Source of the DNA: a virus
Lineage: Duplodnaviria > Caudoviricetes
DNA: 46,503 bases
Virus record (IMG/VR): IMGVR_UViG_3300032255_000172
Location: 1-46,503 of that record
Direction: 5' to 3' (one strand)
Shown here: positions 1,728-42,497 of the stretch, piece by piece
Layout of the letters: every line of letters begins with the position of its first letter
How positions within the stretch are numbered: position 1 is the first letter of the stretch
The notes under the pieces: generated by a model
What the model was told of the DNA's origin: nothing
The model's input: only the letters and a program-made list of their open reading frames with translations
Databases searched by the model: none
Made by a program: the position numbers and the translations under genes

Positions 1728-1778
1728 TTACTAATGTCTCTATACGGACCGACAGGGTCCGTATAGTAATAGTTATAT
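1728..1778 (+). other. attC/attI-like site heading cassette cluster 1
   Basis: Perfect 11-bp hairpin CTATACGGACC-gacag-GGTCCGTATAG (1740-1766) followed by core GTTATAT (1772-1778), which is complementary to the end of the downstream gene (AAATATAAG). Confidence 0.5.
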
Positions 1779-1797
1779 TTATTAAGGAATAATTCAC

Positions 1798-2469
1798 TTG
1801 AGAATTCTACTATCAATATTCGCATTTTTTATATTTTCCCTAAGCGTCTATTTCGGCCACGAATTACTTGAATCAAATAAGCTATCAGGTTCTGAGTTTG
1901 TAGCACTTATAATAGCCTTTGCCGTAATTAGTTTAGTAATATCTTTCTCATCTGAAGTTCAAGAGTTTTCTATCGCGGGTAGTATAGTAAAATTAAAAGA
2001 AGTCAAAAAAGATGCAGAAAATTCAATCAATGAACTTAAATCTGCAAGAACTGAAACATTCAGATTTTTGCTTAGCCTAACTAAAAAATATTCAGGTGGC
2101 TGGGGTGACAGCGATACGGTTGATGAAAGACTACCTGATTTTTGGTTCCTGTATAACCAAATAGTTAAATTTGGATGTGAAGAAGATTTAAAAAAAGATA
2201 TAGCAGACGTTGTATATATTTTACTCAAAGGTCAATTAAATAGTATTTCATATAGTAGTGATGATATTGGTGAAAAATATAATTCTAATAATATTCTTCC
2301 AACGCCTGATATTTTAATTGTTGAGGCGCTTGAAAATACATCTGTAGAAAAAGCAGCCAAACGTGGTGTACGTGATGGTTCTGTAGAAAAAATTAAAGCT
2401 TCTTTGGTGGTTGGGCTTGATGAATACAAAAAACTTTATGTACTCCATGAGGGCATTAAAAAAATATAA
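1798..2469 (+). CDS. cassette-borne hypothetical membrane protein (2 N-terminal TM segments + coiled coil)
   Basis: TTG start with AAGGA RBS; two hydrophobic segments; stop codon lies in the attC R'' box. Confidence 0.85.
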   Translation: MRILLSIFAFFIFSLSVYFGHELLESNKLSGSEFVALIIAFAVISLVISFSSEVQEFSIAGSIVKLKEVKKDAENSINELKSARTETFRFLLSLTKKYSGGWGDSDTVDERLPDFWFLYNQIVKFGCEEDLKKDIADVVYILLKGQLNSISYSSDDIGEKYNSNNILPTPDILIVEALENTSVEKAAKRGVRDGSVEKIKASLVVGLDEYKKLYVLHEGIKKI

Positions 2470-2586
2470 GGCGTTCAAAAAGGACTAATAACCCGTAACT
2501 TGAATTACATTCTTCAGTTACACTACAAAACTAACAATAACAAAAGTTCACTACTGGGTTATCAGCCCTTTAACTGGGCGTTAGCT
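2464..2586 (+). other. attC site (123 bp, VCR-like arms)
   Basis: ATATAAG (R'', AAC>AAG variant) ... GTTAGCT (R'); arms GCGTTCAAAAAGGACTAATAAC / GTTATCAGCCCTTTAACTGGGCGTTAG pair imperfectly. Confidence 0.85.
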
Positions 2587-2598
2587 GCAGGTAAGAAT

Positions 2599-3069
2599 AT
2601 GGATTTCACAGTATCATTAGGAACTCTTCTAAAAATAGCTGGTATTTCAGTAGGTACTTATGTTTTGCTCCCACTTTTTTTAGTTCTAAGGGATTATCTG
2701 TTATGGCAAATTATTGATCGTTTCATAATCACTGAAGACTTAGAAAATAAAATTAATTTATATTCTGCTTGCCTTGTGCAATGGAATAATGAATACGTAG
2801 GCAGTGCTACAATTCAAAATACAGCCGGTATAGTTCGATACTGCATAGATGAGGCTGACGTATCAAAAGAAGAATTGACAAGCTATAGAGAGAACAGGGA
2901 TAAATTACAGAGTGAAATGAATAAAACAATATGGTTTATTCAGCGACGAAGTAATTTAGTTTCATGGCTATTAAAACACTACAAACAAGATTCTGATAAC
3001 CCAATTAAATTAATGCATGAAGCTTCTAATTTACGAGCTAAAGAGTCATATGAAAAAAATAACAGCTAA
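2599..3069 (+). CDS. cassette-borne hypothetical protein with N-terminal TM segment (start revised to MDFTVS at 2599)
   Basis: The ORF-track start (2500) runs through the attC; ATG 2599 lies just after GTTAGCTG; gene ends in CAGCTAAC, the exact complement. Confidence 0.8.
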   Translation: MDFTVSLGTLLKIAGISVGTYVLLPLFLVLRDYLLWQIIDRFIITEDLENKINLYSACLVQWNNEYVGSATIQNTAGIVRYCIDEADVSKEELTSYRENRDKLQSEMNKTIWFIQRRSNLVSWLLKHYKQDSDNPIKLMHEASNLRAKESYEKNNS

Positions 3070-3153
3070 CAATGCGCTGCATCTGACCAACCAATACGCC
3101 GTTTCGCTGCCATACACTCTGTATTGCTCGCCAGCTGAGCTTAAGCGTTAGCC
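3064..3153 (+). other. attC site (90 bp)
   Basis: AGCTAAC-aatgcgctgcatctgacc ... ccagctgagcttaagc-GTTAGCC; canonical R''/R' boxes and paired arms. Confidence 0.9.
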
Positions 3154-3163
3154 CTTTCAGGTC

Positions 3164-3847
3164 ATGGAAACGATAGATAACATTAAGCTAATTGATAATG
3201 GATTGAGGCATATCGAATTTGAAATGCTATCTGATGGCCCAAGCCTATTTCGTGTTTTGAGAGAATCCCATTCAGTCTTTTATCGCTCTATGATTGAGGT
3301 TTTAAGGGGTTCAGATAATTTCTTTATAACGGGAAGAAATAATGATAAAGACAAAAAACTATCCTTCAAATCCGGCAATGACAGTTGGAAAGAGGTAAAA
3401 AAAGGAGCGTTTGTTAATGGGTGTGAAAGAGCTTGGAAATTTACAGAGCCAGAAGAGTGTGCTGAGCCGAACAGCTTAGATGAGCCAATTACTGATGAGG
3501 AGTGGATAAAAAATCAAAAATGGTTAGTCGCTTTCTATGAAGCTTTAGCAATGGTTCAATCTCAGCCTTTTATGCTCAGATTTACATGCAGCAATATATT
3601 GACCGTGTCAGATGATGAAATGAAGACTCTAGAGTGGGCTCACGAGAAAATAAGAAATGAATATGAGCACTTTGTGCCAAAACTATACTCATCTGATCAA
3701 ATTGAATTAAAGACTGGTGCGTTACTTTTACTAGATAAATCCGAATATTTATTATTTGAATCAGGTAATGTGGTTTGTCCAGATAGTGGTATATTAAATA
3801 AAATAAGGGTTAAAATTTGTTGTTTACGTTTCAAATTAATGGTCTAA
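3164..3847 (+). CDS. cassette-borne hypothetical protein with HEPN-like RxxxxH motif
   Basis: 'KIRNEYEH' in a helical C-terminal region; cassette bounded by GTTAGCCC and GGTCTAAC. Confidence 0.75.
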   Translation: METIDNIKLIDNGLRHIEFEMLSDGPSLFRVLRESHSVFYRSMIEVLRGSDNFFITGRNNDKDKKLSFKSGNDSWKEVKKGAFVNGCERAWKFTEPEECAEPNSLDEPITDEEWIKNQKWLVAFYEALAMVQSQPFMLRFTCSNILTVSDDEMKTLEWAHEKIRNEYEHFVPKLYSSDQIELKTGALLLLDKSEYLLFESGNVVCPDSGILNKIRVKICCLRFKLMV

Positions 3848-3868
3848 CAAGCGCATCGTGTGCGACCG
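3842..3868 (+). other. truncated attC (left arm only)
   Basis: GTCTAAC-aagcgcatcgtgtgcgacc is a typical attC left arm overlapping the stop; downstream GTTAGAA (3891) lacks a complementary arm. Confidence 0.6.
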
Positions 3869-4056
3869 TTGAATGTCTGCTTTCTTACGCGTTAGAACTA
3901 TCTTCAATGCCTGCTTCTGAGACTCAACAGGCATTGAAATTAAAGTGTGGCTTTAAATTTTAAATGATAATTAACATCGGAAAGTAAGTGTGCAGGGATA
4001 CACGCCGGATCTAAAGAAATAGTTTAGTTGAAAGATTATGTATGAAACTCGTCGGG

Positions 4057-4088
4057 ATAAAAAAGACAGGCCCGTACGCTACGGGCCT
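4057..4088 (-). terminator. rho-independent terminator of small-peptide gene
   Basis: AGGCCCGTA-cgc-TACGGGCCT perfect stem with a T-run on the minus strand, 9 nt after the stop codon. Confidence 0.85.
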
Positions 4089-4096
4089 ACTCCATT

Positions 4097-4186
4097 TTAG
4101 AAGTACTGGAATAGAATAATCACCTTCTCAATGATTTGGATGATCTGTTCTATGATGGAAAATATGTGTGTGGGTAAATTTAACAT
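4097..4186 (-). CDS. 29-aa hydrophobic/amphipathic peptide, candidate type I toxin (MLNLPTHIFSIIEQIIQIIEKVIILFQYF)
   Basis: Translated by hand; strong SD GAGGAG; own terminator; below the ORF-track size cutoff. Confidence 0.65.
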   Translation of the reverse strand: MLNLPTHIFSIIEQIIQIIEKVIILFQYF

Positions 4187-4276
4187 TTGCTGCTCCTCTA
4201 GCTGATGGGGAGCCACCCAGATTGCATAATTGCAAATATGGGCTTGAATCTGTGGCTGAGAGTTATATACTAAATA

Positions 4277-4363
4277 ACGATCTCCACAGATCTAGTGTCT
4301 CGGCTCCTAAGCTGACACTCAGTCCCTCTCATGGCCGCCAAGCATATGGGAGGGATTTTTTTT
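4277..4363 (+). ncRNA. candidate sRNA antitoxin (~85 nt)
   Basis: Promoter-like TTGAAT(4244)-16 bp-TATACT(4266); terminator TCCCTCTCAT...ATGGGAGGGA-T8; contains GCTCCTAAGCTGA complementary to the peptide SD region. Confidence 0.5.
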
Positions 4364-4616
4364 GCCAAAAATATATTTAAAAAAAAATAAAACATTTATG
4401 GCTTGATGTTAAAAAGAATACTTTTATCCACAAAACATTGTCAAGAGAAATAAATTAATATTCTATATATGAAGTTTCTAATATTTCAGGATAAGTCACT
4501 ACGCTATAGGGTATGTTGAATTTTGGGTATTTAAAAAATATTAAATTAAACAAAATATTACTAAGTAATGCAAAAAAAAATGGATAAAAAAAAGAAAAAT
4601 AAAAACAAATAAAGTG

Positions 4617-4645
4617 TTGACTACCGCCCCAATGGGGCGTATATT
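4617..4645 (+). promoter_or_regulatory. sigma70 promoter with internal palindromic operator
   Basis: TTGACT-17 bp-TATATT; CGCCCC-aat-GGGGCG sits in the spacer. Confidence 0.75.
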
Positions 4646-4695
4646 ATTAATCAACGGCAAGGCAACCCGCCCAGCCAAAACAACCGGAGAAATCC

Positions 4696-5142
4696 ATGTT
4701 TACACTTCAAGAAACGTTAATCATCAACCAAGCTAAAAGCATTCTTGCAACTAAGCTTTTAAATACACCCTCTTTCACCGACCCATCTGACGTTAAAACG
4801 TTTTGCCAGTTAGAAATCGGCCATTTAGAACACGAAGTTTTCGCCGCTTTATTTTTAAACCAACGCCACCAAATGATTGCCTTTGTAGAAATGTTTACTG
4901 GCACAATCGATGGCGCATCTGTTTACCCTCGCGAAGTTGCTAAAGCAGCACTGGCACACAACGCTGCTGCCGTGATTTTTACGCACAACCACCCTAGCGG
5001 CACAGTAACACCTTCATCAGCTGATGAACGCATCACAACGCGTTTAGTTGATGCGCTAAGCCTGTTTGATATCCGCGTACTGGATCACATCATAGTCGGC
5101 GTTAAAGACACCGCCTCATTCGCGGAGCAAGGGTTGCTTTAG
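4696..5142 (+). CDS. radC: RadC-family JAB/JAMM domain protein
   Basis: 'GTIDGASVYPREV', 'HNHPSG...S..D', 'LDHIIVG' motifs; short mobile-element-type form. Confidence 0.93.
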   Translation: MFTLQETLIINQAKSILATKLLNTPSFTDPSDVKTFCQLEIGHLEHEVFAALFLNQRHQMIAFVEMFTGTIDGASVYPREVAKAALAHNAAAVIFTHNHPSGTVTPSSADERITTRLVDALSLFDIRVLDHIIVGVKDTASFAEQGLL

Positions 5143-5209
5143 CAGCCCCGCCCCAGAGGGCAGGTTAAAACAACCCGCCCTCTTAACAAAATACAACCGG
5201 AGAAACAAC

Positions 5210-5545
5210 ATGAGCGAATCACAACCCAGCTATGGAAACCAAACGTTACCGCAAACTCTCGATGCATTTAAAAACAGAAATTGCACCAGGCTTTACACTG
5301 ACGATCAATACACACCCCCCACACCCGAGGACGTTAACCAGCTAATTACACTTTGTGGGTGGTCGCAAAACGATGCGGCGAAACTCGTGGGTGTTAAGTG
5401 GGATACAAAAAAGGGCTCATCAACTATACGCAAATGGAAAAGTGATAAGTCAAAAAAAGACCATCGCGAAATCCCGTATTCTGCATGGCGGTTAATGCTA
5501 ATTTATGCCGGTGTGGTAAACACCAGCAACCACGTTAACCGGTAG
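5210..5545 (+). CDS. KorC-like HTH repressor
   Basis: 'PTPEDV...SQNDAAKLVGV...TIRKW...IPYSAWRLM' parallels IncP KorC; GGAGA RBS. Confidence 0.7.
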   Translation: MSESQPSYGNQTLPQTLDAFKNRNCTRLYTDDQYTPPTPEDVNQLITLCGWSQNDAAKLVGVKWDTKKGSSTIRKWKSDKSKKDHREIPYSAWRLMLIYAGVVNTSNHVNR

Positions 5546-5549
5546 ATAT
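5274..5549 (+). repeat. 276-bp direct repeat, copy 1 (korC-like gene body)
   Basis: Near-identical to 7451-7726 (constant offset 2177). Confidence 0.95.
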
Positions 5550-5796
5550 AATTTCCTAAAAAAACTAGACCAAGATATTGAAATATTTGCAGACGGATAC
5601 GACAGAACTTTCCATGAAGCAACTAGATTTGAAGAAGTGCGACTTTGCAAAAAGGCGGCCGCTTCCACCATTAAAGCTGTCATTAAGGATTTTCTTATAT
5701 TTAGGCCCGAGTTAGTCAGATGCGGATAGGTTTAAAAAAGATTAATCACTCTGACTGTAAGTGATTGATATAAATGGATGTACAGTATATGTTATG

Positions 5797-5954
5797 TCCT
5801 AAAACCCCAATAACAAGGAATTATTTCCGCTTTTTGACCTTCAATAACAACCTTTAAAATAACCAAGTCGTAGATTTAGGGTTAAAAATTATCTTTTTTA
5901 GGTTGTTTTTGCGGGGTGATAACAGGAAAATATTCCATTAAACAGCTGTTAGCC
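5797..5954 (+). other. 158-bp attC-like element heading cassette cluster 2
   Basis: Imperfect terminal inverted arms ending in GTTAGCC; homologous at both ends and equal in length to 39067-39224. Confidence 0.65.
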
Positions 5955-5967
5955 TTACAAGGAAAGT

Positions 5968-6504
5968 ATGAAGCTTTTACTAATCACCTTATTATTTCTA
6001 CCAACTTTAGTTCATTCTGAGCAATGGTTTACGAATGGAGCACCTGACAATAAAAACAATCATTTAGGTGGTATTAAAGACTTCGGTGCAATGGTGTTAA
6101 TGACAACCAACTCTAAGAAAGCATTAGAAAATTGGTCTATCCCTACTAAAGGCGTAACAATACCATCCACTGAAATAGTAGAAAAAGGAAAACCAATTGA
6201 AGCTTTAGTCTTTTTCTCGGGTTGTTATAAAAATAAATCAGGAAACTGTATTACTGAAGTCGATTATGTAATCTACAAACCAGACGGCACCATATACGTT
6301 GAATATAAAGAAACAGAACTATGGAAAAACAAACCAGCTTTTCCACAAGGAAAAATTGGTCTAGCTGTAGACCGCGTGGGCTTAATAGCAGACCCTGAAG
6401 ACCCTATAGGTATTTACAAAGTTAAATGCACAGTAAGAGACTTAGTTGCTAATTATGAGTTTAAGATATTCACGTCTTTTAAAGTAATAGAGGCTAACAA
6501 GTAA
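5968..6504 (+). CDS. cassette-borne secreted hypothetical protein
   Basis: Signal peptide MKLLLITLLFLPTLVHS; cassette GTTAGCCT...AGGCTAAC perfectly complementary. Confidence 0.85.
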   Translation: MKLLLITLLFLPTLVHSEQWFTNGAPDNKNNHLGGIKDFGAMVLMTTNSKKALENWSIPTKGVTIPSTEIVEKGKPIEALVFFSGCYKNKSGNCITEVDYVIYKPDGTIYVEYKETELWKNKPAFPQGKIGLAVDRVGLIADPEDPIGIYKVKCTVRDLVANYEFKIFTSFKVIEANK

Positions 6505-6616
6505 ATTAACGTGGACCAAAAACCCTTAACTTCTATGGTATTTTTAATTTATACTACCAATCAATACAACATTAACTTGTCTACTGGGTTTTGGTCCAGT
6601 TATTAGAGCGTTATGC
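6492..6616 (+). other. attC site (125 bp)
   Basis: GGCTAAC ... GTTATGC; arms TGGACCAAAAACCC / GGGTTTTGGTCCA; shares internal motifs with 2464-2586. Confidence 0.9.
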
Positions 6617-6628
6617 GTAAAAAAAATA

Positions 6629-7084
6629 ATGAATAAAATTTCACTTATTATGGGAATTTGGGAGCAAGGCTACTTTAATAGTGACGAAGTAATAAAATGG
6701 GCAGACTCTCAAATCAACTCACTTGAAAAACCAGATGATGAATTAATCGAGCTATCCCTTAATGGCCCAAGTAAGTGTTTCAAATTACAACCGTATGAAT
6801 TCCCTAGAACTAAAGAGCTTTCATTCATTGAATCATTTTCATTAAGAATATTAAAACTAAATTTATCCTCTGACTCAGAAATTAATACTTTCATTAATTG
6901 GGCAACTAGTGCTGCTATGGGAGAAGACACAGAAAATAAAGAGGTCATGTTCTGCTATATGCTTGATGACTATCTAGGCTATAACAGCCCTGGAACTATT
7001 TCATACTTCAAAGAGAACATACAAGAGCTATTGCCAGCTTGTAAAAAAAGGGTAAGCTCATTATTAAATCAACTAAACGCATAA
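6629..7084 (+). CDS. cassette-borne hypothetical protein
   Basis: Cassette GTTATGCG...CGCATAAC perfectly complementary; stop in R''; attC truncated after ~7095. Confidence 0.85.
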   Translation: MNKISLIMGIWEQGYFNSDEVIKWADSQINSLEKPDDELIELSLNGPSKCFKLQPYEFPRTKELSFIESFSLRILKLNLSSDSEINTFINWATSAAMGEDTENKEVMFCYMLDDYLGYNSPGTISYFKENIQELLPACKKRVSSLLNQLNA

Positions 7085-7134
7085 CAATACACTCTGAGTC
7101 CATCGTCAATTAATTATTTGTATTTTATTTCGCC

Positions 7135-7450
7135 TTAATTTGTGCCTGTGATTTGGGTTTTCATTGACGTTAAACACGCCGCACCATTTGATACGGTGTT
7201 CTCACCTAATATCACAAAACGCCCGGCACCATAGGCAATAGTATTGTAATTTGCTGTATCATTATTTTTTGGGTAACTCCATATAATACCGTCAACCGAT
7301 GTAATGATGCCCGTGTAAGGGGGCCCGTGAGTTCGCCTACTGCCACAAACAAGCCGTTGGCATAAGTGATTGACCGCATGTGTGATTTAGATGGGTTGAC
7401 CTGAATGACCATGTGTTTAAATCTGGTGAAACCCATATCCCAGAATTGCC
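7135..7450 (-). pseudogene. frameshifted C-terminal fragment of an Asp-box/beta-propeller (tail-fibre-like) protein
   Basis: Pieces GIWVSPDLNTWS, RSITYANGLFVAVG and IITSVDGIIWS...IAYGAGRFVILG are separated by two frameshifts. Confidence 0.65.
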
Positions 7451-7726
7451 ACAGAAATTGCACCAGGCTTTACACTGACAAGCAATACACCCCTCCCACA
7501 CCCGAGGAAGTTAACCAGCTAATTACACTTTGTGGGTGGTTGCAAAACGATGCAGCGAAACTAGTGGGCGTTAAGTGGGATACAAAAAAGGGCTCATCAA
7601 CTATACGCAAATGGAAAAGTGATAAGTCAAAAAAAGACCATCGCGAAATCCCGTATTCCGCGTGGTGGTTAATGCTAATTTATGCCGGTGTGGTGAACAC
7701 CAGTAACCACGTTAACCGATAGATAT
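7451..7726 (+). pseudogene. 5'-truncated second copy of korC-like gene (repeat copy 2)
   Basis: Lacks RBS and the first ~21 codons of 5210-5545; the ORF-track N-terminus (7405) derives from unrelated sequence. Confidence 0.8.
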
Positions 7727-8184: not shown

Positions 8185-8188
8185 AACA

Positions 8189-11100
8189 TTATCCTACAAA
8201 GTTCCAGCCTGTTGAGCCATTATTATTACAGTACAGTACGCCAGCGGAAGTTACCCATAACGTTCCCTTAACTGCTGTGTGAGTTGGAGCTGAAGAAATG
8301 GTAGATGGCACCAACACTACAGGCCCTCTGGAAGAGTTTGAACCACCAAATCTTCCTCCATACCCATTTGCTGAGTTGGCCCATACAGCATACTTGTCAG
8401 CTCCACTGACAGTTGCCTGCACTGCTGTTCCTGCTGAACTAATAAAGTGCCCTGATATTCCTGATATGCTACTAGCAAACACAGCATCTCCAGAATTTGC
8501 ATTTATAGCATATACTGCTACTCCAGTGCTAGCAGCTGCGTAAGCATTTATCGCCCTTCCTGAGAAAGTGTATCCAGAAACTCCATACCCAGCCCCTGAA
8601 GATCCCTGAACCCCTGTCAAGGTGCTAGCAGGGTCATTTAATCCTCCTAATACATACGCAAAATCCGTTCCATTACCGGTAAGCCCCATAGACGCTAAAG
8701 GACCTTGCACTGCTCCCCCAACTCCAGGCGGGACTCCAAAAAATTGAATTTCTTGAGACCCTGCTACATTAATTTCAACGCGCTGACCAGAGTTCGACGT
8801 TGAAAAACTTGATGACGTAATTGCTCCCGCTGTAACCGAACCCAAAATTGCACTAATTGCTGATAAATTTGCGACATTAATAGTACCTGCGGTAATCTCT
8901 GTTATAAACGATTCATCAATTGCGCCAGGGTCAAAATAACTCCCCATATTTGAATAAGTAATATTACCAATTAAAGTTGCAAATGCACCTGTGTTAACAG
9001 TGGCATTATTTGCGGGCAAATTACTACCGCCAATATTTACGCCCCACGTAGCGCCAACCGTAGCATTATTGGCAGGTAAATTACTACCACCGACATCAAC
9101 ACCCCACGTAGCACCTGCCGTCGCGTTATCGGCTGGCAAATTAACATTAGACCCTACAAATATATTTAATGAATCTATTCCGCCACTGGTGGATGTTTTG
9201 ATTATTTGCGCCATTACGCAATCAGTTTCTAATGGCAAAAATTGAAATCTAGTACCAACATTATCCTCAGCGTAAAACAAACCCGAAGCTTTAATATAGA
9301 CAACAGGGACTATTCTAACGTACGCAAGTCCATTCCATGCTGCGCTAAATCTGGTTAATGGGGACGCATCCGTCCACATAAGAAATACTAACTCAGTACT
9401 GGGTACTGGAATATTTCCTTCGTATTTAGTGTGTACTTGAGTATCAGCAAGTACGGTTCGCTTGCTACCATCTGGATGATAAAAACTCGATCCTTGAACC
9501 CTTACCTCTCCTATGTTGGAGACTCCTCCAACGGTAAGATTTTTAGTGAATACAATATCGCCAAACCCACCAACCGAAATACCTGCAGGTATATAATCAG
9601 GCAGATTAGCCACATTAGAATTCCAGTCAGCGCCAACGGTTGCGCCCGCCTGAACCGGCGCAAACGCTGTGGCATCTAACGTGGTGAGTGCCGCAACAGC
9701 AGACTCCTTACCCGAATAAAACACCGCCTTAATTAAATAATTGTAAGTGCCTGCAGCAAGCAAGGTAACATTAAAATAATTTAACCGTAAAAGATCCGAC
9801 AGCACCGTTGCTGTTGCCCACGCTGTACCTTCTCTAATTTCAAAATGCGACAGTTCCGTGGTAATAATACGATCCCACTTGAGAAGCGTATTTTCACCCG
9901 ATATTTCCGATGTGAAGTTTGAAACATTCGGCGGCAAATCGCTTTGCTCTTCTTCTATAACTTCCGGCTCCGGAATGTATTGCAACCCAAAAGCCGCATC
10001 AATCCAGTCAGACCCGGTGAACCCTAAAAAGCGCTGATCAACCGTAATTCCCGTTATACCTAAATCAACCATTTGTGCTGGCGTAATACGAGAGTGCTTT
10101 GTAACCTGGTCACCATCAAAAACCAAAACAGGCGTGCCCTGAACAGGGCAATCACCCTGTAATGCAACATGCCCTGTTACAAGCTCAGGCGGTGTTGATT
10201 GCCCATCAAGTACCACCAGCAAACCACCCGGCGCACCACCGCCACCACTACCCGCATAAACCTGCCTGCCCTGTACAACGGCACCACCACCCAACACACC
10301 ATCATCACCCGAGGTATCAATTGACCCCGAAACACCAAACGCCATACCGCCGCAAATAACCAGTAACCCGGCCCCACCATTACCACCATCGCCGCCATTA
10401 CCAACAACATAATAAGGATCGCCACCAGAACCACCATCACGGGTATATAAAAACCGTCCGCCCGCACCTGATGCCCCCCTTAAATCGGACGGCAACCCGT
10501 CCAATGATGCTGAATTATTTTGTAAATTATAGTTAGGCACACTCTGCAGTGCGCCCTCTGTTAATACGCCATCAACCAATGTGGCCATAAAAAAGTTAGA
10601 GCCCGACGCCCTAAGATTACCGGATGACTTTGTTGAGCCCAGCACGCCAGAGACACCTGCGCCCGCGTTATCGAGTATAGGCGTGCTAAACTCACCCAAT
10701 AAAATTGAGGTTGAATTATTATCAGAGAACAAAGTCGCACCCGCACCCCCAGCATGCCCCCTGCCCTTACCATCCATGTCGCCATTAATGGTGTAAAAAT
10801 TTTGAACCTTTAACGTAACATTTTGATCAAATGTAACTCTTACACCCGCCGCTAGTTCCAAGTTACCCAGGTAGTAATAAACCGCCGCACCGAATGTTGC
10901 CGCACCGCTTAAATGACCATCTTCAGTAATAACACCATTAACGATAGTTAAAACCGTTGAAAGCTCCACTCCCTCAGAGGCCCAATAAGCGCTATCCATC
11001 ACCTGATTAAATGTTGTTCTTTTTATTGTTCCCGCTTTTTGACTCGAGCCAAACAATTCTAACTTTACGTCACCGGTTAACCAATTTACCGATACCTTTT

Positions 11101-12634
11101 GAACCTCAAAAACACGATTTAATGCAATGGAATTTGGCTCATTAATATCTCGCACCTGAGCCAAATTAACATTAACCGCATCGCCCACCTCTAAATAATT
11201 TAACGAAGGCAACACGCTAACAGATAAGCGCAACGGCGGGCCGCTGAAACGATCGCGCACCTGATCGAAATAACCAAATATTGATTTGTCTGCAATCGCC
11301 CCCGTGTGCGCACCACGCAGTTTAACGGTTTTTTTCGTTGCTTCACCGTGTATCGCAATACTTTCTGCATCAATTAAAACTGAGTTTTTTGTATAATCTT
11401 CTTTTGAATAATCATAATTCCACTCAACATCAATATTATTAATAACCGCTGAGTAATCATGATTAAGGGCACCATAACTCACCACGTTAATCGCATTTAA
11501 TTCAACCAGGTAACCCGAGTTAGACAGCACGGGAGCCAAACGTCTAAGACCCAAGGCACCATCAGAACGCACCGGCATAAAACAACTGAGATAGAACAAC
11601 AATTCTTTTTCTATAAATTTTTTACCGTCGGTTTTTTCAACCCCTTCAAACCGAACATGCCGGCCCTTCTCCGTTGCGGTGTTCCATAAATCATTACCTA
11701 TACCCGTAAACTCAGCCAACCGAACATACTGAGTATCTACACCTAAATGAAAATTATTCGGTAACGTTTGACCAGGTTGGTTTTCTAAATTACCCGTAAG
11801 TAATGCATTAAGAATTTTAGGCGCCGGGCCTTCAAGAAAAACATGTTCAGTTATTTTCGTTTGACGATCATCAGAGCGCGCAACATCAATGGTATGCTCA
11901 GCAGCAAGTGTATTAAGCGCACCGCGCCCACCAGCTACAACCTGAAAAGACACGCCATCAGTAGCATGGGTAAACAATCCAGAGTGACAAAATTTTTCAT
12001 CATTTATACGCGCATACGAAACCGTTTCATTTGGTCTATCGGTGTAACTCGAATCATGCTCTATGGGTGGGAATTTTGTTAAATCGGTTTGATGTACCGG
12101 AATGTGAAGCTGAGTTGATGTGACCGACGCTGAAAGCGTTGTCGTTTCGGGGTCAAATATATCTTTGCGAGTAATGCGCTGAATATCAGAGCATTTAAAA
12201 TTATAAACACCATCCAGATAATCGGGGTCATCTATAACAAACATTAATACTGGCTGATAATCAGCCCAAGAAAATCCCTCATACGCAACATACAAAATAA
12301 CCTGTTTATGACGTAGACCCCGACCAAAATCTAACTTATCGCGTTGATATGCGGTAAGTGATTCATTCATATCAACCGCTTTAAAGCTCAATGCACCTAT
12401 CGTTGATAAGGCCTGATCAGGGTTAATAGATTGTGACTGACTAGAAACACTCTCAATTACATTTGCAATTACCAGCCCCGCCGCTACCGCGCCCGGAGGT
12501 GTTGCGGTATCGCTATGAGACGTTAAATAAAGAAGATCTGCATTTGCACTGTCAAAACTTATTTGCAAAACAGCACGCGGTGATTTACTGACAGATGAAT
12601 TAGCGCTTGCAAAAACAGTATTATCTTGTCGCAT
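8189..12634 (-). CDS. tail tip / central fibre (host-specificity) protein
   Basis: 1481 aa, after tape measure and distal tail genes; Gly-rich region, Fn3-like segment, NATVGATWG repeats, beta-helix-like C-terminus. Confidence 0.8.
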   Translation of the reverse strand: MRQDNTVFASANSSVSKSPRAVLQISFDSANADLLYLTSHSDTATPPGAVAAGLVIANVIESVSSQSQSINPDQALSTIGALSFKAVDMNESLTAYQRDKLDFGRGLRHKQVILYVAYEGFSWADYQPVLMFVIDDPDYLDGVYNFKCSDIQRITRKDIFDPETTTLSASVTSTQLHIPVHQTDLTKFPPIEHDSSYTDRPNETVSYARINDEKFCHSGLFTHATDGVSFQVVAGGRGALNTLAAEHTIDVARSDDRQTKITEHVFLEGPAPKILNALLTGNLENQPGQTLPNNFHLGVDTQYVRLAEFTGIGNDLWNTATEKGRHVRFEGVEKTDGKKFIEKELLFYLSCFMPVRSDGALGLRRLAPVLSNSGYLVELNAINVVSYGALNHDYSAVINNIDVEWNYDYSKEDYTKNSVLIDAESIAIHGEATKKTVKLRGAHTGAIADKSIFGYFDQVRDRFSGPPLRLSVSVLPSLNYLEVGDAVNVNLAQVRDINEPNSIALNRVFEVQKVSVNWLTGDVKLELFGSSQKAGTIKRTTFNQVMDSAYWASEGVELSTVLTIVNGVITEDGHLSGAATFGAAVYYYLGNLELAAGVRVTFDQNVTLKVQNFYTINGDMDGKGRGHAGGAGATLFSDNNSTSILLGEFSTPILDNAGAGVSGVLGSTKSSGNLRASGSNFFMATLVDGVLTEGALQSVPNYNLQNNSASLDGLPSDLRGASGAGGRFLYTRDGGSGGDPYYVVGNGGDGGNGGAGLLVICGGMAFGVSGSIDTSGDDGVLGGGAVVQGRQVYAGSGGGGAPGGLLVVLDGQSTPPELVTGHVALQGDCPVQGTPVLVFDGDQVTKHSRITPAQMVDLGITGITVDQRFLGFTGSDWIDAAFGLQYIPEPEVIEEEQSDLPPNVSNFTSEISGENTLLKWDRIITTELSHFEIREGTAWATATVLSDLLRLNYFNVTLLAAGTYNYLIKAVFYSGKESAVAALTTLDATAFAPVQAGATVGADWNSNVANLPDYIPAGISVGGFGDIVFTKNLTVGGVSNIGEVRVQGSSFYHPDGSKRTVLADTQVHTKYEGNIPVPSTELVFLMWTDASPLTRFSAAWNGLAYVRIVPVVYIKASGLFYAEDNVGTRFQFLPLETDCVMAQIIKTSTSGGIDSLNIFVGSNVNLPADNATAGATWGVDVGGSNLPANNATVGATWGVNIGGSNLPANNATVNTGAFATLIGNITYSNMGSYFDPGAIDESFITEITAGTINVANLSAISAILGSVTAGAITSSSFSTSNSGQRVEINVAGSQEIQFFGVPPGVGGAVQGPLASMGLTGNGTDFAYVLGGLNDPASTLTGVQGSSGAGYGVSGYTFSGRAINAYAAASTGVAVYAINANSGDAVFASSISGISGHFISSAGTAVQATVSGADKYAVWANSANGYGGRFGGSNSSRGPVVLVPSTISSAPTHTAVKGTLWVTSAGVLYCNNNGSTGWNFVG
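8995..9145 (-). repeat. 60-bp (20-aa) tandem repeats in tail tip protein
   Basis: NLPADNATAGATWGVDVGGS / NLPANNATVGATWGVNIGGS / NLPANNATV. Confidence 0.85.
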
Positions 12635-12638
12635 GTTG

Positions 12639-13034
12639 CTACACTTCTCTAACTTTCATTGAAATGCGCCACAAATTTGAACCATTTACACGCGACTCAA
12701 CGTAACCAGGTGAAGCAATAACAGCCATCGGATTATTAGGCACCGCAACTGAGCCCATAACATCTAAAACAAAAACTTCACCACCCTGTACTGAATCAGC
12801 AAACTCACGAATAAGATCGATGCTTTCATTCGTAATACTGCCAATTGTCATTTGGTGAAATATATCAATTCGCTGAATAACGGTTTCTTGTTGGCCGCCA
12901 ATCGACACATGGGTTTTTGATTTTGGTTTAACCGAACGATCGGCTAACTCTAGAACCACATCAATATCATAATTAACATTTACAACATGACCCGAAATTA
13001 GACTTCTTAAAGCCTCATAATTAATAGCCGCCAT
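12639..13034 (-). CDS. putative distal tail protein
   Basis: Position between tape measure and tail tip; size. Confidence 0.6.
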   Translation of the reverse strand: MAAINYEALRSLISGHVVNVNYDIDVVLELADRSVKPKSKTHVSIGGQQETVIQRIDIFHQMTIGSITNESIDLIREFADSVQGGEVFVLDVMGSVAVPNNPMAVIASPGYVESRVNGSNLWRISMKVREV

Positions 13035-15326: not shown

Positions 15327-15647
15327 TTATGAGTTTTTTCTTGCGTCACCTTTTAGCTCAGATTTGAGCATTATTTCAAAGCCGATGTCTTGCAAATACA
15401 AAGGCGGAATACGTTTAATATTTGCCGCTGAATACTTGACAGGATTACCATCAAAATCATTAAAATTTTCCCAACCAACGAGGCCGTACATAATAGCCAG
15501 GTTGTAATCAACAGCACCCGCCCGACAAACCTCAATATATTGAACACCATCGAGGCGCTTAATTTTCCAGCGCGTTGGGTTATCTTCTTTTTCATCAAGC
15601 TCAGACACAAATTCTTGCTCTGAGATCACTTCAATAGCTGTTGCCAT
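15327..15647 (-). CDS. tail assembly chaperone (gpG-like)
   Basis: Between tail tube and TMP; 'GLVGWENF.D.DG.PV.Y' motif; ends ...RKNS at the slippery site. Confidence 0.8.
   Translation of the reverse strand: MATAIEVISEQEFVSELDEKEDNPTRWKIKRLDGVQYIEVCRAGAVDYNLAIMYGLVGWENFNDFDGNPVKYSAANIKRIPPLYLQDIGFEIMLKSELKGDARKNS
15333..15339 (-). promoter_or_regulatory. programmed -1 ribosomal frameshift heptamer A-AAA-AAC
   Basis: X XXY YYZ in frame; the -1 shift reads KLIIAIEVYQNIDK into the next ORF. Confidence 0.8.
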
Positions 15648-33058: not shown

Positions 33059-33078
33059 ACCGTTTTTAATGAGGCTGT

Positions 33079-35027: not shown

Positions 35028-35105
35028 TAGCGAGCAACAACGAATTACCGTGGAAACGTAATGTTGACCGGCTGATTTAAAGCCGGTCTTTTTTAAAGGA
35101 AAAAA

Positions 35106-36605: not shown

Positions 36606-36621
36606 CCGAAAGGAACCGGTA

Positions 36622-36912: not shown

Positions 36913-36927
36913 CACTGGGGCAATAAC

Positions 36928-37568: not shown

Positions 37569-37570
37569 TC

Positions 37571-37798
37571 ATGGCATGGCAAAAAATATCACAATTCAGA
37601 GATGATGCATTTGAGGAAGGCTCAAAGCCTCAAATTCGCACTATAATAAACTGGATAGAAGCTGGGGAGCTATACGGGCGCAAGTTCGGTGGCCAGTGGT
37701 ATGTTGACCCTGACATTTCAATAGTACCGGGCAATACAACCCAGCCAGACATAAGCAACGAAGCAATGGAGCTAGTTAACCAAGCACAGGCATCATGA
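37571..37798 (+). CDS. xis: excisionase
   Basis: 'RTIINWIEAGELYGRKFGGQWYV' wHTH; ATGA overlap with int. Confidence 0.85.
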   Translation: MAWQKISQFRDDAFEEGSKPQIRTIINWIEAGELYGRKFGGQWYVDPDISIVPGNTTQPDISNEAMELVNQAQAS

Positions 37799-38955
37799 TA
37801 AAACGAAACGATAAAAATCAGGATTTAGCGGATAACCTTCATATAAGCAGCAAAAAAAAAGGCGTTACTTACTATTACTATTTACACCCTATCACTAAAA
37901 AACGCAGCGCCATGGGTTGCAACAAAAAAGCTGCCATCGAGGCCGCTAATTATTTAAACAGCCTACTCACAAAAAATGCGCCGTTAATTCAAAGCGTAAT
38001 TAACCCAAAAAAGAAAACACTTTTACAGGTTGTTACCGAATATAAAAAAAACGAAGTGCCAAACAAACCCTGGGCAAAAGGCACCGCAGATAATTACCGC
38101 TACCGTTACAATAAATTCGCTAAAGACTTAGGCCACCACATGATTGAAGTGGTAGACAGGCTAATGATAGCCAACTGGCTTAATGGTTTTGCCGTAAGCA
38201 ACGATGTGCACAACACTACATTATTTATTATTAAAGATATTTACGATTACGCCATATCCAGAAAATACTTAAATACCAACGAAGCCGCGGCCGTACGTAA
38301 AAAATCACTCTCTAAAAAACTAGAAGCCAATAAAAAAGCCCGGCAACGGCTCACAGTTGAAATGTTTTGGGCGATACATGATAAAGCACCTATCTGGTTA
38401 AAAAATGCCATGGAGCTATCACTAATAACCCTGCAGGCCCGTAATGAAATTATAAACATGAAATACGACCACCACCGGGACGACTGGCTATATGTAATAC
38501 GCCAAAAGGTCGCTGGCGAATCAGACTTTGGTTTTATCCGGATACAATCAACCACGCAAATTGATAACATTGTAAAACGAAGCCGCAACCAAATAATTTC
38601 GCCTTACATTATTCACTACAACCCAAAGCGCATGCGCAGGGACCAAATAATAAATAAAAATCACTGGTCATGCATAACACCCGGTTATTTATCAAACCAA
38701 TTCAAGGCCGCCCGTGAGAAATGCGAACTGTTTAACGACTGGAGCCCAAAAGAAAAACCCACATTTCATGAAATAAGATCACTCGGCGCACGTATCTACC
38801 GTGAGCAAGGCAGGCCAAAGCAATATATTCAAAGCCTTCTCACCCACTCAAACCAAAAAACCACGCAGATATACCTGGACGGCGGCGAATTAAGCGATGA
38901 ACATTTTTATAAGGTTGAGGCTGAGCTGGATTTGATGAATTTACCTAAGATATAA
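37795..38955 (+). CDS. int: phage tyrosine integrase (lambda-like)
   Basis: N-terminal arm-binding domain (YYYY.HP); catalytic R, HEIR, LLTH, TQIY. Confidence 0.95.
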   Translation: MIKRNDKNQDLADNLHISSKKKGVTYYYYLHPITKKRSAMGCNKKAAIEAANYLNSLLTKNAPLIQSVINPKKKTLLQVVTEYKKNEVPNKPWAKGTADNYRYRYNKFAKDLGHHMIEVVDRLMIANWLNGFAVSNDVHNTTLFIIKDIYDYAISRKYLNTNEAAAVRKKSLSKKLEANKKARQRLTVEMFWAIHDKAPIWLKNAMELSLITLQARNEIINMKYDHHRDDWLYVIRQKVAGESDFGFIRIQSTTQIDNIVKRSRNQIISPYIIHYNPKRMRRDQIINKNHWSCITPGYLSNQFKAAREKCELFNDWSPKEKPTFHEIRSLGARIYREQGRPKQYIQSLLTHSNQKTTQIYLDGGELSDEHFYKVEAELDLMNLPKI

Positions 38956-39066
38956 CAGGAAGAATATATTAAATGATTGCTTTCTCCCAAAGCAGCCATA
39001 AGTTAGCACTAGACTTATTCGCATTAGCAATGACTGATATATCAAAGAAGTACGATCCATCTTATC

Positions 39067-39224
39067 GCCCAACATCCCATTAACAGGGAATTAATTCCGT
39101 TTTTCTCCCTTCAATAACAATATTAATTCACATGAAGATACTGATTTATCTAGCAAAAGAGATTAAATTAGGGGAATATCTATAGGTTATAACTGGAAAT
39201 AGTTCACGTTAACAGATGTTAGGT
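39067..39224 (+). other. 158-bp attC-like element heading cassette cluster 3
   Basis: GCCCAAC (RYYYAAC) ... GTTAGGT (GTTRRRY) with paired arms AACATC..TTAAC / GTTAA..GATGTT; homologous to 5797-5954. Confidence 0.75.
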
Positions 39225-39243
39225 ATAAAATAGGATAAAACAA

Positions 39244-39720
39244 ATGGAAGCATCAGTTGTTGCTGCATGGTGGGGTGCAATCGTCGCTTCAATAGTCCTG
39301 CTATGGGACATTTTCAAATGGGCAACAAAAGGCGCTCGTGTTTCAGTTAATGCTATACCAAATATGCAAACTGTTAACACAGTTGAAGGAAAGCTCGATG
39401 ATAATAGGTTGATTTTAGTAGAGGCATTGAATACTGGCGATCTACCCTCAACCATTACGCATTTAGTTTTCTACCAATATGCATCTCATCTAAATAAAAT
39501 ACTAAACAAACCAAAAAATCAAGGCCTTATCCCTTATCAAGGTGCTGGCTATGAGCTTCCTCACTTGCTTAATCCTGGTACTCGTTGGACAGGAAATATA
39601 GACCAAAATGACATAGTAAAAAAAATTGGAGAAGACGGTTTATTTTATTGTGGCGTCATACATACTGCTCGTAAAAAACCCGTGCTCGCAAAAATCAATT
39701 TAAGTAATGAGAACACCTAA
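39244..39720 (+). CDS. cassette-borne hypothetical protein with N-terminal TM
   Basis: Cassette GTTAGGT...ACCTAAC complementary; stop in R''. Confidence 0.85.
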   Translation: MEASVVAAWWGAIVASIVLLWDIFKWATKGARVSVNAIPNMQTVNTVEGKLDDNRLILVEALNTGDLPSTITHLVFYQYASHLNKILNKPKNQGLIPYQGAGYELPHLLNPGTRWTGNIDQNDIVKKIGEDGLFYCGVIHTARKKPVLAKINLSNENT

Positions 39721-39796
39721 CACAATAAAATCAACATGGACAAAATAAGCACCACTTCGCTATGCTTTATTTTTCCAGTTATTAAAAACGTTAGCT
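39715..39796 (+). other. attC site (82 bp)
   Basis: ACCTAAC ... GTTAGCT; arms TGGACAAAATAAGCA / TGCTTTATTTTTCCA. Confidence 0.88.
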
Positions 39797-39822
39797 ATTA
39801 AGACAGGTCATAAAGGGCTCAT

Positions 39823-41205
39823 ATGAAAAAAGAAAAAGAAGCGACTCCTGAAAATATAAAGTTACTCGAAATAGAAAAAAAGTACCTTGTAGATCTTGAA
39901 TGCTTAAGAGAAATGCATTGCAACGTAATTCCTTTGCTTAATGAAAAAGATATAGAGCGTAAAAAATTATTAAATGAAACCATAAAACGTCTTTTTACTA
40001 ATCGAAATCAACTTAAAGGAAGAACTGATGAAAAAATATCAGGAGAACAGGATAAGTCAGAAGAGCCTGAAGAGAAAACGTCTAAATCTGAAACCAATAC
40101 CGATGAAGAAATAAATAAAAACGATAAGGATCCAATAAAATTAACAGGTAGAGATGCTGAGTTTTTAACATCAACAATTGGAAAGTTAAAGCGCGCTCAA
40201 AATTTATTTGAAAATCAAGCAATAGTAACTTTAGTATCGCGTTTTGATGAGTTTCTTGGTGAAATAATCAAACTAGTTCTTGGACAAAATCCTTCATGGT
40301 TAAAAAGCTCTGAGAAGACAATAACTTATAAAGAACTAATTGATCTTAAGTCAATTGATAAAGCCATTGAAGGAGTAATTCACAAAGAAGTTGAAAATCT
40401 TCTACGAGATTCACATGAAGAACAAATAAATTATGTTGATGAAAAACTAAAGCTAGGCATAGAACAAAAGTTTGAAAAGTATTCTGAGTTTTTAGAAATC
40501 GCAGAAAGAAGAAATTTATTCGTACATACAGGTGGAGTTGTTTCCCAGCAATACATTGATAAATGCAATAGCTTTGGAGCTGACATAAAAAAAACAAAAC
40601 AAGGTGACTGCCTAAGCTCTCACACAGAGTATTTTACAAATGCATTCATGGTATATTTTGAAATTGCATTAAGAATATCACAAGCATCGTATAGGCGGCT
40701 ATTCCCAAATGAGTTGGAAAGCGCAGACAGAGCTCTCAATAATCTTGCTATAAGATTTATGAATGAAGGTGAGTATATTTTGGCTGAAATTATAACTACA
40801 TTTGATCTTGCTATTCCCGACAAACTAAGGTCACAAGACACAGAGTATTTATATTTTGCATACATCAATCAAGCAATATCAAGAAAGTATTTAAATAAAG
40901 ATTTTGAAAAAGGTTTAAATGGCATTCATTGGAATGTGTTTCATCCTAAATATGCGCTTTGTTTGCACGCGCTAAGAGAAGAGTATGAAGAGGCATCAAA
41001 TCTTATGTATTCTAAAGAAATACAAAATGAAATAACTCAAGAGGGCTTTAGAACATGGCCTGCGTTCAGGGATTTCAGAGATTCACATCAATTCAATAAA
41101 GCTTACAAAGACATATATGGTATTGAGTGCGTACCAAATACCAATGTTTTTATTTCTGAAAACGATGATGATAATGAGACTGATGATAAAGAAAAAAGTA
41201 GCTAA
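39823..41205 (+). CDS. cassette-borne HEPN-motif protein with helical C-terminal region
   Basis: 'LVSRFDEFL' and 'ERRNLFVH' RxxxxH; cassette GTTAGCTA...TAGCTAAC complementary. Confidence 0.8.
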   Translation: MKKEKEATPENIKLLEIEKKYLVDLECLREMHCNVIPLLNEKDIERKKLLNETIKRLFTNRNQLKGRTDEKISGEQDKSEEPEEKTSKSETNTDEEINKNDKDPIKLTGRDAEFLTSTIGKLKRAQNLFENQAIVTLVSRFDEFLGEIIKLVLGQNPSWLKSSEKTITYKELIDLKSIDKAIEGVIHKEVENLLRDSHEEQINYVDEKLKLGIEQKFEKYSEFLEIAERRNLFVHTGGVVSQQYIDKCNSFGADIKKTKQGDCLSSHTEYFTNAFMVYFEIALRISQASYRRLFPNELESADRALNNLAIRFMNEGEYILAEIITTFDLAIPDKLRSQDTEYLYFAYINQAISRKYLNKDFEKGLNGIHWNVFHPKYALCLHALREEYEEASNLMYSKEIQNEITQEGFRTWPAFRDFRDSHQFNKAYKDIYGIECVPNTNVFISENDDDNETDDKEKSS

Positions 41206-41284
41206 CAAGAAAATCAACACTTACAACTTTGGGTTACGTCCTAAAAACAGTCCGTAATTCAACGTTGCAGGTTATTTTGGCGTT
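41200..41284 (+). other. attC site whose R' box is interrupted
   Basis: AGCTAAC-aagaaaatcaacacttacaac ... gttgcaggttattttggc-GTT. Confidence 0.8.
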
Positions 41285-41452
41285 GAGACTACAGAAAAAT
41301 CCCTAGAGTTATTTATTTAACAGAATATAGGCACTCACAGTTGCATAGAATATTTTTTGCAGTATAAAGGTAGATAAAAAATTTAAAAAACAGACCTATT
41401 TCGTAGGATGTTTTTTAACCAATATTTAGGCTGGAGTTTTTTCTACAGTCTT
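41285..41452. mobile_element. putative 168-bp MITE
   Basis: Imperfect TIRs AGACTacAGAAAAA / TTTTTCTacAGTCT, flanked by GTT on both sides; non-coding. Confidence 0.55.
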
Positions 41453-41481
41453 GTTAGATGATAAACAATACCAGGAAAAAT

Positions 41482-41880
41482 ATGGATAAAAAATTAAAGC
41501 ATCTAGATTTTATTCAGGGAGTCATCAACCGGCTTTCAACAAATTCTTTTCTATTAAAAGGGTGGAGCGTTGTCCTTGTATCAGCGTTATTTGCTTTATC
41601 TGCTAATAATTCAAACGTAAAGTTTATATTCTTGGCATACTTTCCCGCCATCGCATTTTGGGCGCTTGATGGTTACTTTCTTTCCATGGAACGTGGTTAT
41701 CGAAAATTATATGACAAAGTAAGAAAGCTGGATGCAGAAGAGATTGATTTCTCCATGGATACTCGTGAAGTGCATAGCGGCGCGAATACTTGGGCTTCAG
41801 CATTCCTATCAAAGACGTTAATTGTATTTCATGGCGCGCTCATTGGCGCGATTATTATTGTAATGATTATTCAAATGTGA
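41482..41880 (+). CDS. multi-TM membrane protein, putative effector paired with TIR
   Basis: Three hydrophobic segments; AGGA RBS before ATG 41482; 9 bp upstream of TIR gene. Confidence 0.8.
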   Translation: MDKKLKHLDFIQGVINRLSTNSFLLKGWSVVLVSALFALSANNSNVKFIFLAYFPAIAFWALDGYFLSMERGYRKLYDKVRKLDAEEIDFSMDTREVHSGANTWASAFLSKTLIVFHGALIGAIIIVMIIQM

Positions 41881-41889
41881 GGAACTACT

Positions 41890-42390
41890 ATGGCCAGAAA
41901 TTGTTTTTATAGTTTTCATTATGTGCCTGATTGCCAAAGAGCAGCGCAAATTAGACAAATTGGTTCAATTGAAGGCAATAAACCAGCTTCAGATAATGAC
42001 TGGGAAACTGTAACCAAAGGTGGTGATACGGCCATTAAGAACTGGATTGCAAATCAAATGAAAGGGAAATCATGTACTGTGATATTGGTCGGTAGTGGTA
42101 CTGCAAATAGAAAGTGGATAAATCACGAAATACTCGAATCTTGGAAGGCTGGTATGGGTGTTGTTGGGATTTACATTCATGGCATTAGAAACCTTGCCGG
42201 CGAAACATCAACAAAAGGGATAAATCCCTTTGATTATATTACCCATGGTACAACCCAGAAAAAGCTTTCAACTATAGTGAATTGCTATAACCCTGGCGGC
42301 TCAACCAGTAAAGAAAAGTATGATTGGATATCGCAACACCTAGCTAACGCCGTAGAAGAAGCAATAAAGCTAAGAAAAGAAAACCCATAG
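41890..42390 (+). CDS. ThsB-like TIR domain protein (DUF1863/MTH538)
   Basis: 'CFYSFHY', 'SDNDWE', 'CTVILVG..TANRKWINHEI' with the catalytic Glu. Confidence 0.9.
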   Translation: MARNCFYSFHYVPDCQRAAQIRQIGSIEGNKPASDNDWETVTKGGDTAIKNWIANQMKGKSCTVILVGSGTANRKWINHEILESWKAGMGVVGIYIHGIRNLAGETSTKGINPFDYITHGTTQKKLSTIVNCYNPGGSTSKEKYDWISQHLANAVEEAIKLRKENP

Positions 42391-42403
42391 TGTTACTAAG
42401 AAC

Positions 42404-42497
42404 ACCGAACGAATAAAATCAATATTGACAAAATAAAGCACTGCTGAATTCTAACGTTCTGAGTGCCTGTTTTTTTAGCAAGATTTTATAGTTCCCT
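42404..42497 (+). other. degenerate terminal attC
   Basis: Left arm resembles 39715 attC (AATAAAATCAA..GACAAAATA); ATAAAATC/GATTTTAT pair; ends in non-canonical GTTCCCT. Confidence 0.6.

Follow-up and report, generated by a model that had tools for sequence, protein, structure and literature searches.

Cassette arrays without an integrase are known from phages, and one of them has an attI of its own. Qi et al. 2023 (PMC9892861) count three complete integrons, one In0 and 17 clusters of attC sites lacking an integron integrase (CALINs) in 10,705 phages, report that IntI1 recombines attC sites carried by phages in vivo and, in the portion of their text available to us, suggest homologous or illegitimate recombination as the route by which phage integrons were captured. 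The origin of CALINs was left open in the accessible sections of Cury et al. 2016 (PMC4889954). Here we describe a prophage with att ends at tRNA-Pro(GGG), contained in a stretch of 46,503 nt (IMG/VR record IMGVR_UViG_3300032255_000172; the whole stretch is called the window below). It bears three arrays of integron cassettes, each headed by an attI site that has no integron integrase gene (intI) beside it and that we therefore call solo. The reading we favor, and which we hold to be fairly probable, is that these are three integrase-less platforms (an attI plus two to four cassette units), kin to two families of chromosomal integrons in the host's order, which arrived in the phage as blocks and were then loaded and trimmed by IntI acting in trans while deletions eroded the array ends.

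Like the window, Shewanella prophage M16-3 (MZ568829; PMC9892861) is a temperate phage with an attI-headed CALIN that has no adjacent intI; by our own reading of the record this is the array between tail genes. In the available text, M16-3 is thought to be cryptic and has its own intI, a single attI type and a complete integron. The window, in contrast, has no intI, three attI sites of two families, an intact-looking Int with an att pair, and turnover against a close relative. The CALINs of PMC4889954 and the 17 of PMC9892861 are attC clusters without an integrase, as here, but in the accessible sections they are defined by attC only; because IntegronFinder, as described there, matches only class 1-3 attI sites exactly, those of the window would be missed. 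For the single attC sites lacking an integron integrase (SALINs) and attG sites of Loot et al. (10.1101/2022.09.11.507474), the common feature, in the part available, is IntI acting away from its own platform, whereas the targets in the window are true attI homologues. Sedentary chromosomal integrons have been described as defense banks (available text of 10.1101/2024.07.02.601686 and 10.1101/2024.07.02.601719); as there, the cassettes of our arrays are mostly unassigned and one is a candidate defense pair, but our arrays are phage-borne and just one cassette of eight matches defense models. Finally, the accessory hotspots of P2/P4 prophages (PMC13586616) have cargo that varies next to int/attP and near the tail end, as in the window, but the portion of that paper available contains the words "integron" and "attC" zero times, while the hotspot described here is built on integron sites.

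Our literature searches, which left subscription journals mostly uncovered, found no account of a phage with solo attI sites from more than one family, nor of turnover among relatives; the phage CALINs in the supplement of PMC9892861 may bear on novelty. How the accessory hotspots of temperate phages are refilled is mostly unexplained, and the locus described here suggests a route that can be tested, in which phages carry landing pads but not the enzyme. We infer that IntI acts on this phage, a question that pads, cognate enzymes and relatives make directly testable, since three phage attI, two intact cognate IntIs (at bacterial loci L166 and L230) and relatives with other cargo are matched parts for direct experiment. 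In addition, attC-only screens miss dispersed attI platforms, which recur in this bacterial order.

Solo attI sites ahead of the arrays

The original prediction had described eight cassettes in three arrays but missed the attI ahead of every array. Arrays 2 and 3 are headed by attI sites of one family (A) and array 1 by a site of another (B), each recognized with a hidden Markov model (HMM) built from bacterial copies (Table 1). Conserved blocks, set at fixed spacing over 200 bp, make up family A; they include several TAAC-containing boxes and two boxes that resemble IHF sites. Arrays 2 and 3 share this upstream module, at equal distance to the core G/TT, where the slash marks the crossover. 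Copy 1, ahead of array 2, is 87% identical over 93 nt to locus L160, whose module adjoins a divergent intI. The leader of array 1 is 83% identical to contig C41:413-579 of genome G085, which adjoins a divergent IntI at C41:657-1598, and the homology stops at G/TTA. On this sequence evidence, all three leaders are homologous to intI-adjacent attI regions, so that an IntI acting in trans would have a proper target in each array.

Both families are found beside a divergent intI in the host's order, and without intI in other genomes. For family A this is the case at three of the 15 loci fetched (L160, L162, L166), where the start of intI lies some 220 bp ahead of the crossover, and the IntI of L166 scores 390 bits on TIGR02249. 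The intI-linked locus of family B is L230, and genome G088 has three family B copies away from its intI. The A-linked and B-linked IntIs are 48% identical to each other. Bacterial copies are mostly solo, although for two copies in G033 the contig ends 120-170 nt upstream, leaving a short flank behind that label.

Family A was matched in 13 of 97 genomes of the host's order (11 confirmed by HMM, two short-box matches). In other groups it was absent from two sets of genomes (0/32 and 0/5) and gave only two weak chance matches in a further 16. The intI regions L125-L130 do not match family A. A class-wide sample of 400, with two candidates scored per genome and one genome unscored, gave two matches, one a full solo copy and one partial.

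Three phage copies of family A keep 88 (copy 1), 75 and 86 of 96 conserved columns, and 62/108, 55/108 and 57/107 spacer columns. That conserved columns are kept far above spacer columns is as expected if attI-A is under selection. The two copies in the window share 61% identity and fall apart in a tree with weak support, and were thus probably acquired separately, as far as sequence comparison can tell. Promoter-like counts in the module do not exceed chance (20, with 25.3 expected, and 16, with 15.0 expected), no RNA dataset was listed among the runs containing the sequence, and inspection of the attI modules by eye gave no clean match to a LexA box. We also considered the module as a long attC, as its arms are imperfect inverted repeats, but it does not match the attC model described below and adjoins intI elsewhere.

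On chromosomes, solo attI sites of the two families head small arrays at several places per genome, with up to three full copies (loci L222-L229, L214, L231, L242, L245 and L256, in G033, G117, G121, G102, G118, G079, G088 and G457). G121 has two solo modules in tandem. Close to the solo copies in L227:2454-6000 and in L171 there are tRNA-like attachment ends that belong to other integrated elements. In Pseudoalteromonas sp. HL-AS2 (L153), another attI-like module with a LexA-like box heads cassette arrays at 11770-12010 and 15400-15625; it has no intI within 24 kb and is weakly similar to family A.

No intI or intI remnant was found in the window by tblastn with four bacterial IntIs, where the best match (E 0.018) is the phage Int, and no attI of the prophage is adjoined by an intI, as it would be in a complete integron. 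The phage Int scores 15.9 bits on the IntI model TIGR02249, against a cut-off of 265. The original prediction was right that intI is absent, and the phage Int is of the lambda type. Many IntIs of this order (L129, L193-L210) are extended at the N terminus, their open frames running to 450-500 aa, and the IntI of G031 has a different attI. A phage record (L158; KX853513, 4680-5678) has an IntI-like gene, 42% identical to that of L126, amid phage genes.

Table 1. Positions of integron-related and phage features in the window
Feature	Position	Strand	Evidence or remark
Solo attI, family B, crossover G at 1772	1620..1772	+	HMM from 4 bacterial copies, E 7e-38
Solo attI, family A copy 1, crossover G at 5948	5749..5948	+	HMM from 9 bacterial copies, E 2.5e-40
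Solo attI, family A copy 2, crossover G at 39218	39030..39218	+	HMM from 9 bacterial copies, E 3.6e-20
Cassette 1: 223-aa gene 1798-2469, attC 2464-2586	1773..2580	+	Model E 0.0011; core 7/8; phrog_8083, function unassigned
Cassette 2: 156-aa gene 2599-3069, attC 3064-3153	2581..3147	+	Model E 0.00036; core 8/8
Cassette 3: 227-aa gene 3164-3847, short degenerate attC 3842-3897 holding inverted motif	3148..3897	+	Core 7/8; model E 2.6
Cassette 4: 178-aa gene 5968-6504, attC 6492-6616	5949..6610	+	Model E 1.2e-5
Cassette 5: 151-aa gene 6629-7084, R'' at 7078, truncated attC	6611..7219	+	Core 8/8; comparison with L004
Cassette 6: 158-aa gene 39244-39720, attC 39715-39796	39219..39790	+	Model E 0.0038
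Cassette 7: 460-aa gene 39823-41205, attC 41200-41288	39791..41282	+	Model E 0.0005
Gene-less hairpin unit, about 170 bp, between two GTT cores	41283..41453	+	Folds end to end
Cassette 8: membrane protein 41458-41880, TIR protein 41890-42390, degenerate attC 42404-42497	41454..42497	+	Candidate defense pair
attL, 46-bp duplicate of tRNA-Pro 3' end	826..871		100% repeat of 42675-42720
attR and intact tRNA-Pro(GGG)	42675..42752	-	Same tRNA-SNF2 order in G031 and G126
Lambda-type phage integrase, not IntI	37795..38955	+	PF09003 (lambda Arm-DNA-bind_1) and PF00589
radC-like JAB gene and small putative regulator; non-cassette genes separating arrays 1 and 2	4696..5545	+	PF04002
276-bp duplicate (95%) of 5274-5549	7451..7726	+	Copies flank array 2; L004 without it
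Dispersed non-coding repeat upstream of array 1	1442..1552	+	80% to L136:2663-2773; partial in G121, G040, G034, G033
AGCAGACATT motif, where intI starts in intI-linked copies	1570..1579	+	Exact inverted copy 3872-3881

Cassettes and attC sites

The pairs of GTT core and complement listed in the original prediction were borne out, with 8/8 positions paired in four cassettes and 7/8 in three; for cassette 8 the pairing rises from 4/8 to 6/8 when its start is moved to the likelier core GTTAGATG at 41453. To find attC sites by structure, we built a covariance model (CM) from 20 outside sites of Pseudoalteromonas, Desulforapulum, Vibrio and phage M16-3. It gave 15 matches in the window at E<=5, five of them at E 1e-5 to 0.004 and the remaining ten at E>=0.93. 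All five passing sites lie within the arrays and on the bottom strand. When folds were constrained to enforce the R box, one or two single bulges were predicted on the R''-side arm of the bottom strand in all five, and in all five the predicted bottom strand was more stable than the top; z-scores for unconstrained folding were mixed (-3.1 to +0.8). Both the attC model and the bottom-strand folding with extrahelical bases, which had been proposed as checks, thus came out in favor of attC. Judged by these sequence features, the cassettes of the window are real integron cassettes. The claim of eight of them needs revision in two respects: an intact attC is present in five of the eight, and the eighth unit consists of a gene-less hairpin followed by a cassette for a transmembrane (TM) and a TIR protein. 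In every array the final site is degenerate or cut short and does not pass the model (3842-3897, E 2.6; 7079, E 4.1; 42404-42497, no match). Arrays 1 and 3, with two intact attC sites each and no neighboring intI, are CALINs (at least two attC sites); array 2 has one.

The hairpin unit (41282-41453) may be an attC-like repeat of a type that the CM misses. This repeat is also found on several other metagenome contigs of runs X1-X3 (over 41323-41456), which diverge at 41456.

The TM+TIR pair of cassette 8 is the one candidate for defense. It matches the PADLOC models PDC-M50A (E 6.5e-56), PDC-M50B (E 1.7e-61) and ThsB, and a 78%-identical pair forms a core-bounded cassette in another array, L154. 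We considered Thoeris as an assignment, because the TIR protein matches ThsB, but its partner matches PDC-M50A rather than ThsA, and the pair corresponds to the PADLOC candidate PDC-M50. For the remaining seven cassette genes, Pfam, NCBIfam and PADLOC gave no match. The original prediction had noted that cassettes are rich in defense genes; here only one in eight matches defense models. Besides themselves, the proteins of cassettes 4 and 7 have 45 and 95 homologues, respectively, two of the latter annotated PF18735. The attC of cassette 4 is 74% like an attC beside the intI of G031.

Turnover among relatives and rival explanations

Phage L001 is 95-98% identical to the window over the main backbone blocks, has an Int that is 97% identical, and occupies the same tRNA site. 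At array 3, L001 keeps the attI-A but has one unrelated 254-aa cassette gene (BLASTP E 0.15 against the cassette 6 gene), and contigs of run X2 show the same replacement joints. At the end of array 2, another cassette, whose cores pair perfectly, takes the place in phage L004 (95-96% identical), and the DNA from TAAC onward is common to both. At array 1, a 3292-nt contig of run X2 tracks the window over 843-1539 and then departs, and another contig rejoins near 3866. The joints of run X2 were aligned at 80% likeness; the one at 6614-7081, with only 27 nt to one side, we accept since it also appears in L004. Altogether, by sequence comparison, all three arrays differ in a close relative with a 95-97% identical backbone, by at least two kinds of event. 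The repeated capture of cassettes that the original prediction proposed accords with this turnover and with an attI target in each array. One contig of run X1, which may be the source of the window, spans 7629-41375. Contigs of four runs contained no excision joint from G/TT to G/TT, though contigs drop rare variants. Cassette 4 has no cover in runs X2 or X3, and we did not count this as evidence.

Pads are also present in another phage. L136 is an unrelated prophage (with terminase and DarB-like genes) in which an attI-A directly follows phage genes and precedes other cassettes; its 30-kb record holds three attC sites at E<0.03 and no IntI. Pattern scans for more pad-bearing phages yielded, for family A, only contigs of L001 and L136 and four chance hits, and for family B none. 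The phages L002, L006 and L005 are too distantly related, and the CM finds no attC in the records of L002 and L006. In L002, a 72% identical relative, the slot after int (11258-12833) holds non-cassette genes, which we take to be a gp37/gp38-like gene and a partner.

In the favored reading, the platforms would have entered the phage as ready-made blocks of attI plus cassettes; IntI supplied in trans would add and remove cassettes on phage DNA, and ordinary deletions would erode the array ends. The cassettes may be expressed from a promoter inside the attI module, and a lysogen could benefit, for example through defense by the TIR pair. IntIs are described as strict for their own attI and lax for attC (PMC2095811, in the part available), so any IntI of the order could excise cassettes but loading would need a cognate enzyme. 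IntI scores above the cut-off in 58 of the 97 genomes of the order. A search for the host integron by exact pattern in metagenome contigs returned seven hits, two identical to the window, one on the L001 contig and four chance matches in coding sequence, and was set aside.

Several observations weigh against this reading. An IntI of the A- or B-linked type was not found in the nearest relatives of the host, where the IntI of G031 is 43% identical and G126 has none at E<=1e-40; four genomes bearing solo copies likewise yielded no cognate IntI, theirs being 40-45% identical, all six being incomplete assemblies. Two of the three A-linked intI genes (all but that of L166) carry an internal stop. 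Nor does any array have a breakpoint cleanly at G/TT, where the swaps had been expected exactly. Array 3 comes closest: identity to L001 is 53/60 before G/TT, 8/8 and then 10/19 after it, and 19/63 from 27 nt on. Because the leaders are alike for 8-27 nt beyond the crossover, above background (only 6 of 1081 leader pairs are as high), the breakpoint is near G/TT but not proven at it; moreover, the attI-A of L001 has lost its distal half by deletion. At array 2 the expectation did not hold, as a different gene before R'' and the same DNA after it place the change at R''. Top-strand recombination does cleave at R'', but is orders of magnitude rarer (PMC5027507, in the section available), so that a deletion between TAACAA microhomologies fits equally well. 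In the case of array 1, divergence from the relative already sets in ahead of the attI, and the array differs as a block that includes attI-B. Finally, L001, L004 and run X2 have common junctions and were counted as one relative lineage.

The main rival is that the arrays are inert passengers, in which chromosomal solo-attI arrays supplied copies of whole attI-cassette blocks, which reached the phage through homologous or repeat-mediated exchange and decayed afterward, with IntI never acting on phage DNA. We think this unlikely, though it has to be taken seriously. Since chromosomes commonly carry solo copies, the copying of blocks would not require IntI to touch the phage, and the block difference at array 1 (1539 to about 3866), the damaged terminal attC of all three arrays, the want of a cognate IntI in the nearest genomes and the divergence of the two A copies all agree with it, as does a short motif upstream of most solo copies that recurs inverted at the end of array 1. 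Against it, the attI of array 3 stays while the cassette changes close behind G/TT, and the phage copies retain the conserved columns, although selection in a chromosomal donor could give the same result. A separate loss of intI inside the phage, leaving each array as the remnant of a complete integron, is improbable and largely refuted. Complete integrons do exist in temperate phages (available text of PMC9892861), homology to the linked copies begins exactly at the intI start, and the interrupted A-linked genes suit such decay; yet no remnant of intI is left, three separate clean losses would be needed, and chromosomal copies as well as L136 show the same junction without intI, and the same motif, which implies that intI was lost before entry into this phage.

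Still less credence goes to cassettes inserted de novo into ordinary phage DNA, with arrays growing by attC x attC insertion. IntI does insert cassettes at many non-att genomic sites (10.1101/2022.09.11.507474, as far as its text is available), but all three arrays begin at 150-200-bp homologues of intI-adjacent attI regions rather than at phage DNA. This refutes such insertion for the first position of each array; at the right end of array 2 it may have occurred. That the cores are chance GTT/AAC pairs in AT-rich morons, or products of misassembly, can already be regarded as refuted: the arrays are indeed AT-rich (34% GC against 42% in the phage core) and weak hits are numerous across the genome when a crude hairpin score is used, but the CM leaves a gap between E 0.004 and 0.93, relatives have the same junctions, and the contig of run X1 crosses 7629-41375, albeit from what may be the source of the window.

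A broader scheme of two-tier gene capture we regard as speculative and rather doubtful. Here solo attI pads would themselves be mobile: they would come away from intI at a short repeat, and a second recombination system would shuttle them between chromosomes and prophages. Temperate phages would collect pads of several IntI specificities. If so, phages would load cassettes from whichever IntI their current host carries, and the arrays would be a renewable supply of morons. With up to one mismatch allowed, the motif WGCNGHCATT is present no more than 130 nt ahead of 13 of the 17 solo copies (eight exact) and ahead of none of four intI-linked copies, a contrast that is biased because the motif was defined on these very sequences and the linked copies are coding there. 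An exact inverted copy closes array 1 (3872-3881), and arrays 2 and 3 are without a good one. A later copy, L256, has the motif with one mismatch, but its flank is common to G033. In the literature the motif matched only unrelated primer sequences. We treat it as a lead on how pads leave intI, not as a result.

Phage genes and neighboring repeats

The window holds a lambda-like integrating prophage, with an arm-binding tyrosine Int, an att duplication, terminase, portal, capsid and repressor; the domain matches comprise terminase, portal, Clp-capsid, tape-measure, repressor and arm-type Int. Its ends are a perfect 46-bp repeat (826-871 and 42675-42720), the right copy of which overlaps tRNA-Pro(GGG) at 42676-42752. 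The Int has what we take to be the catalytic R, HxxR, H and Y motifs. The arrays had been placed, upon excision, in one accessory region between int and a tail tip gene. The region around attP stands, while the tail tip label is by position only, the gene at 8189-12634 having no Pfam or PHROG match.

The nearest host relatives found, G031 and G126, are 82% identical in the flanking SNF2 protein and belong to the same order as the metagenome-assembled genome behind L060, an uncultured gammaproteobacterium. A broken serine-resolvase fragment (42789-43138), not present in G031 or G126, lies between the tRNA and the SNF2 gene. A short ORF remnant on the minus strand (7212-7463) resembles a tail-fiber or beta-propeller repeat fragment. 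The radC-like gene and regulator at 4696-5545 recur as a pair in phage L006 (76% nucleotide identity). The repeat at 5274-5549 and 7451-7726 corresponds to the small putative regulator gene, and recombination between its two copies would remove array 2.

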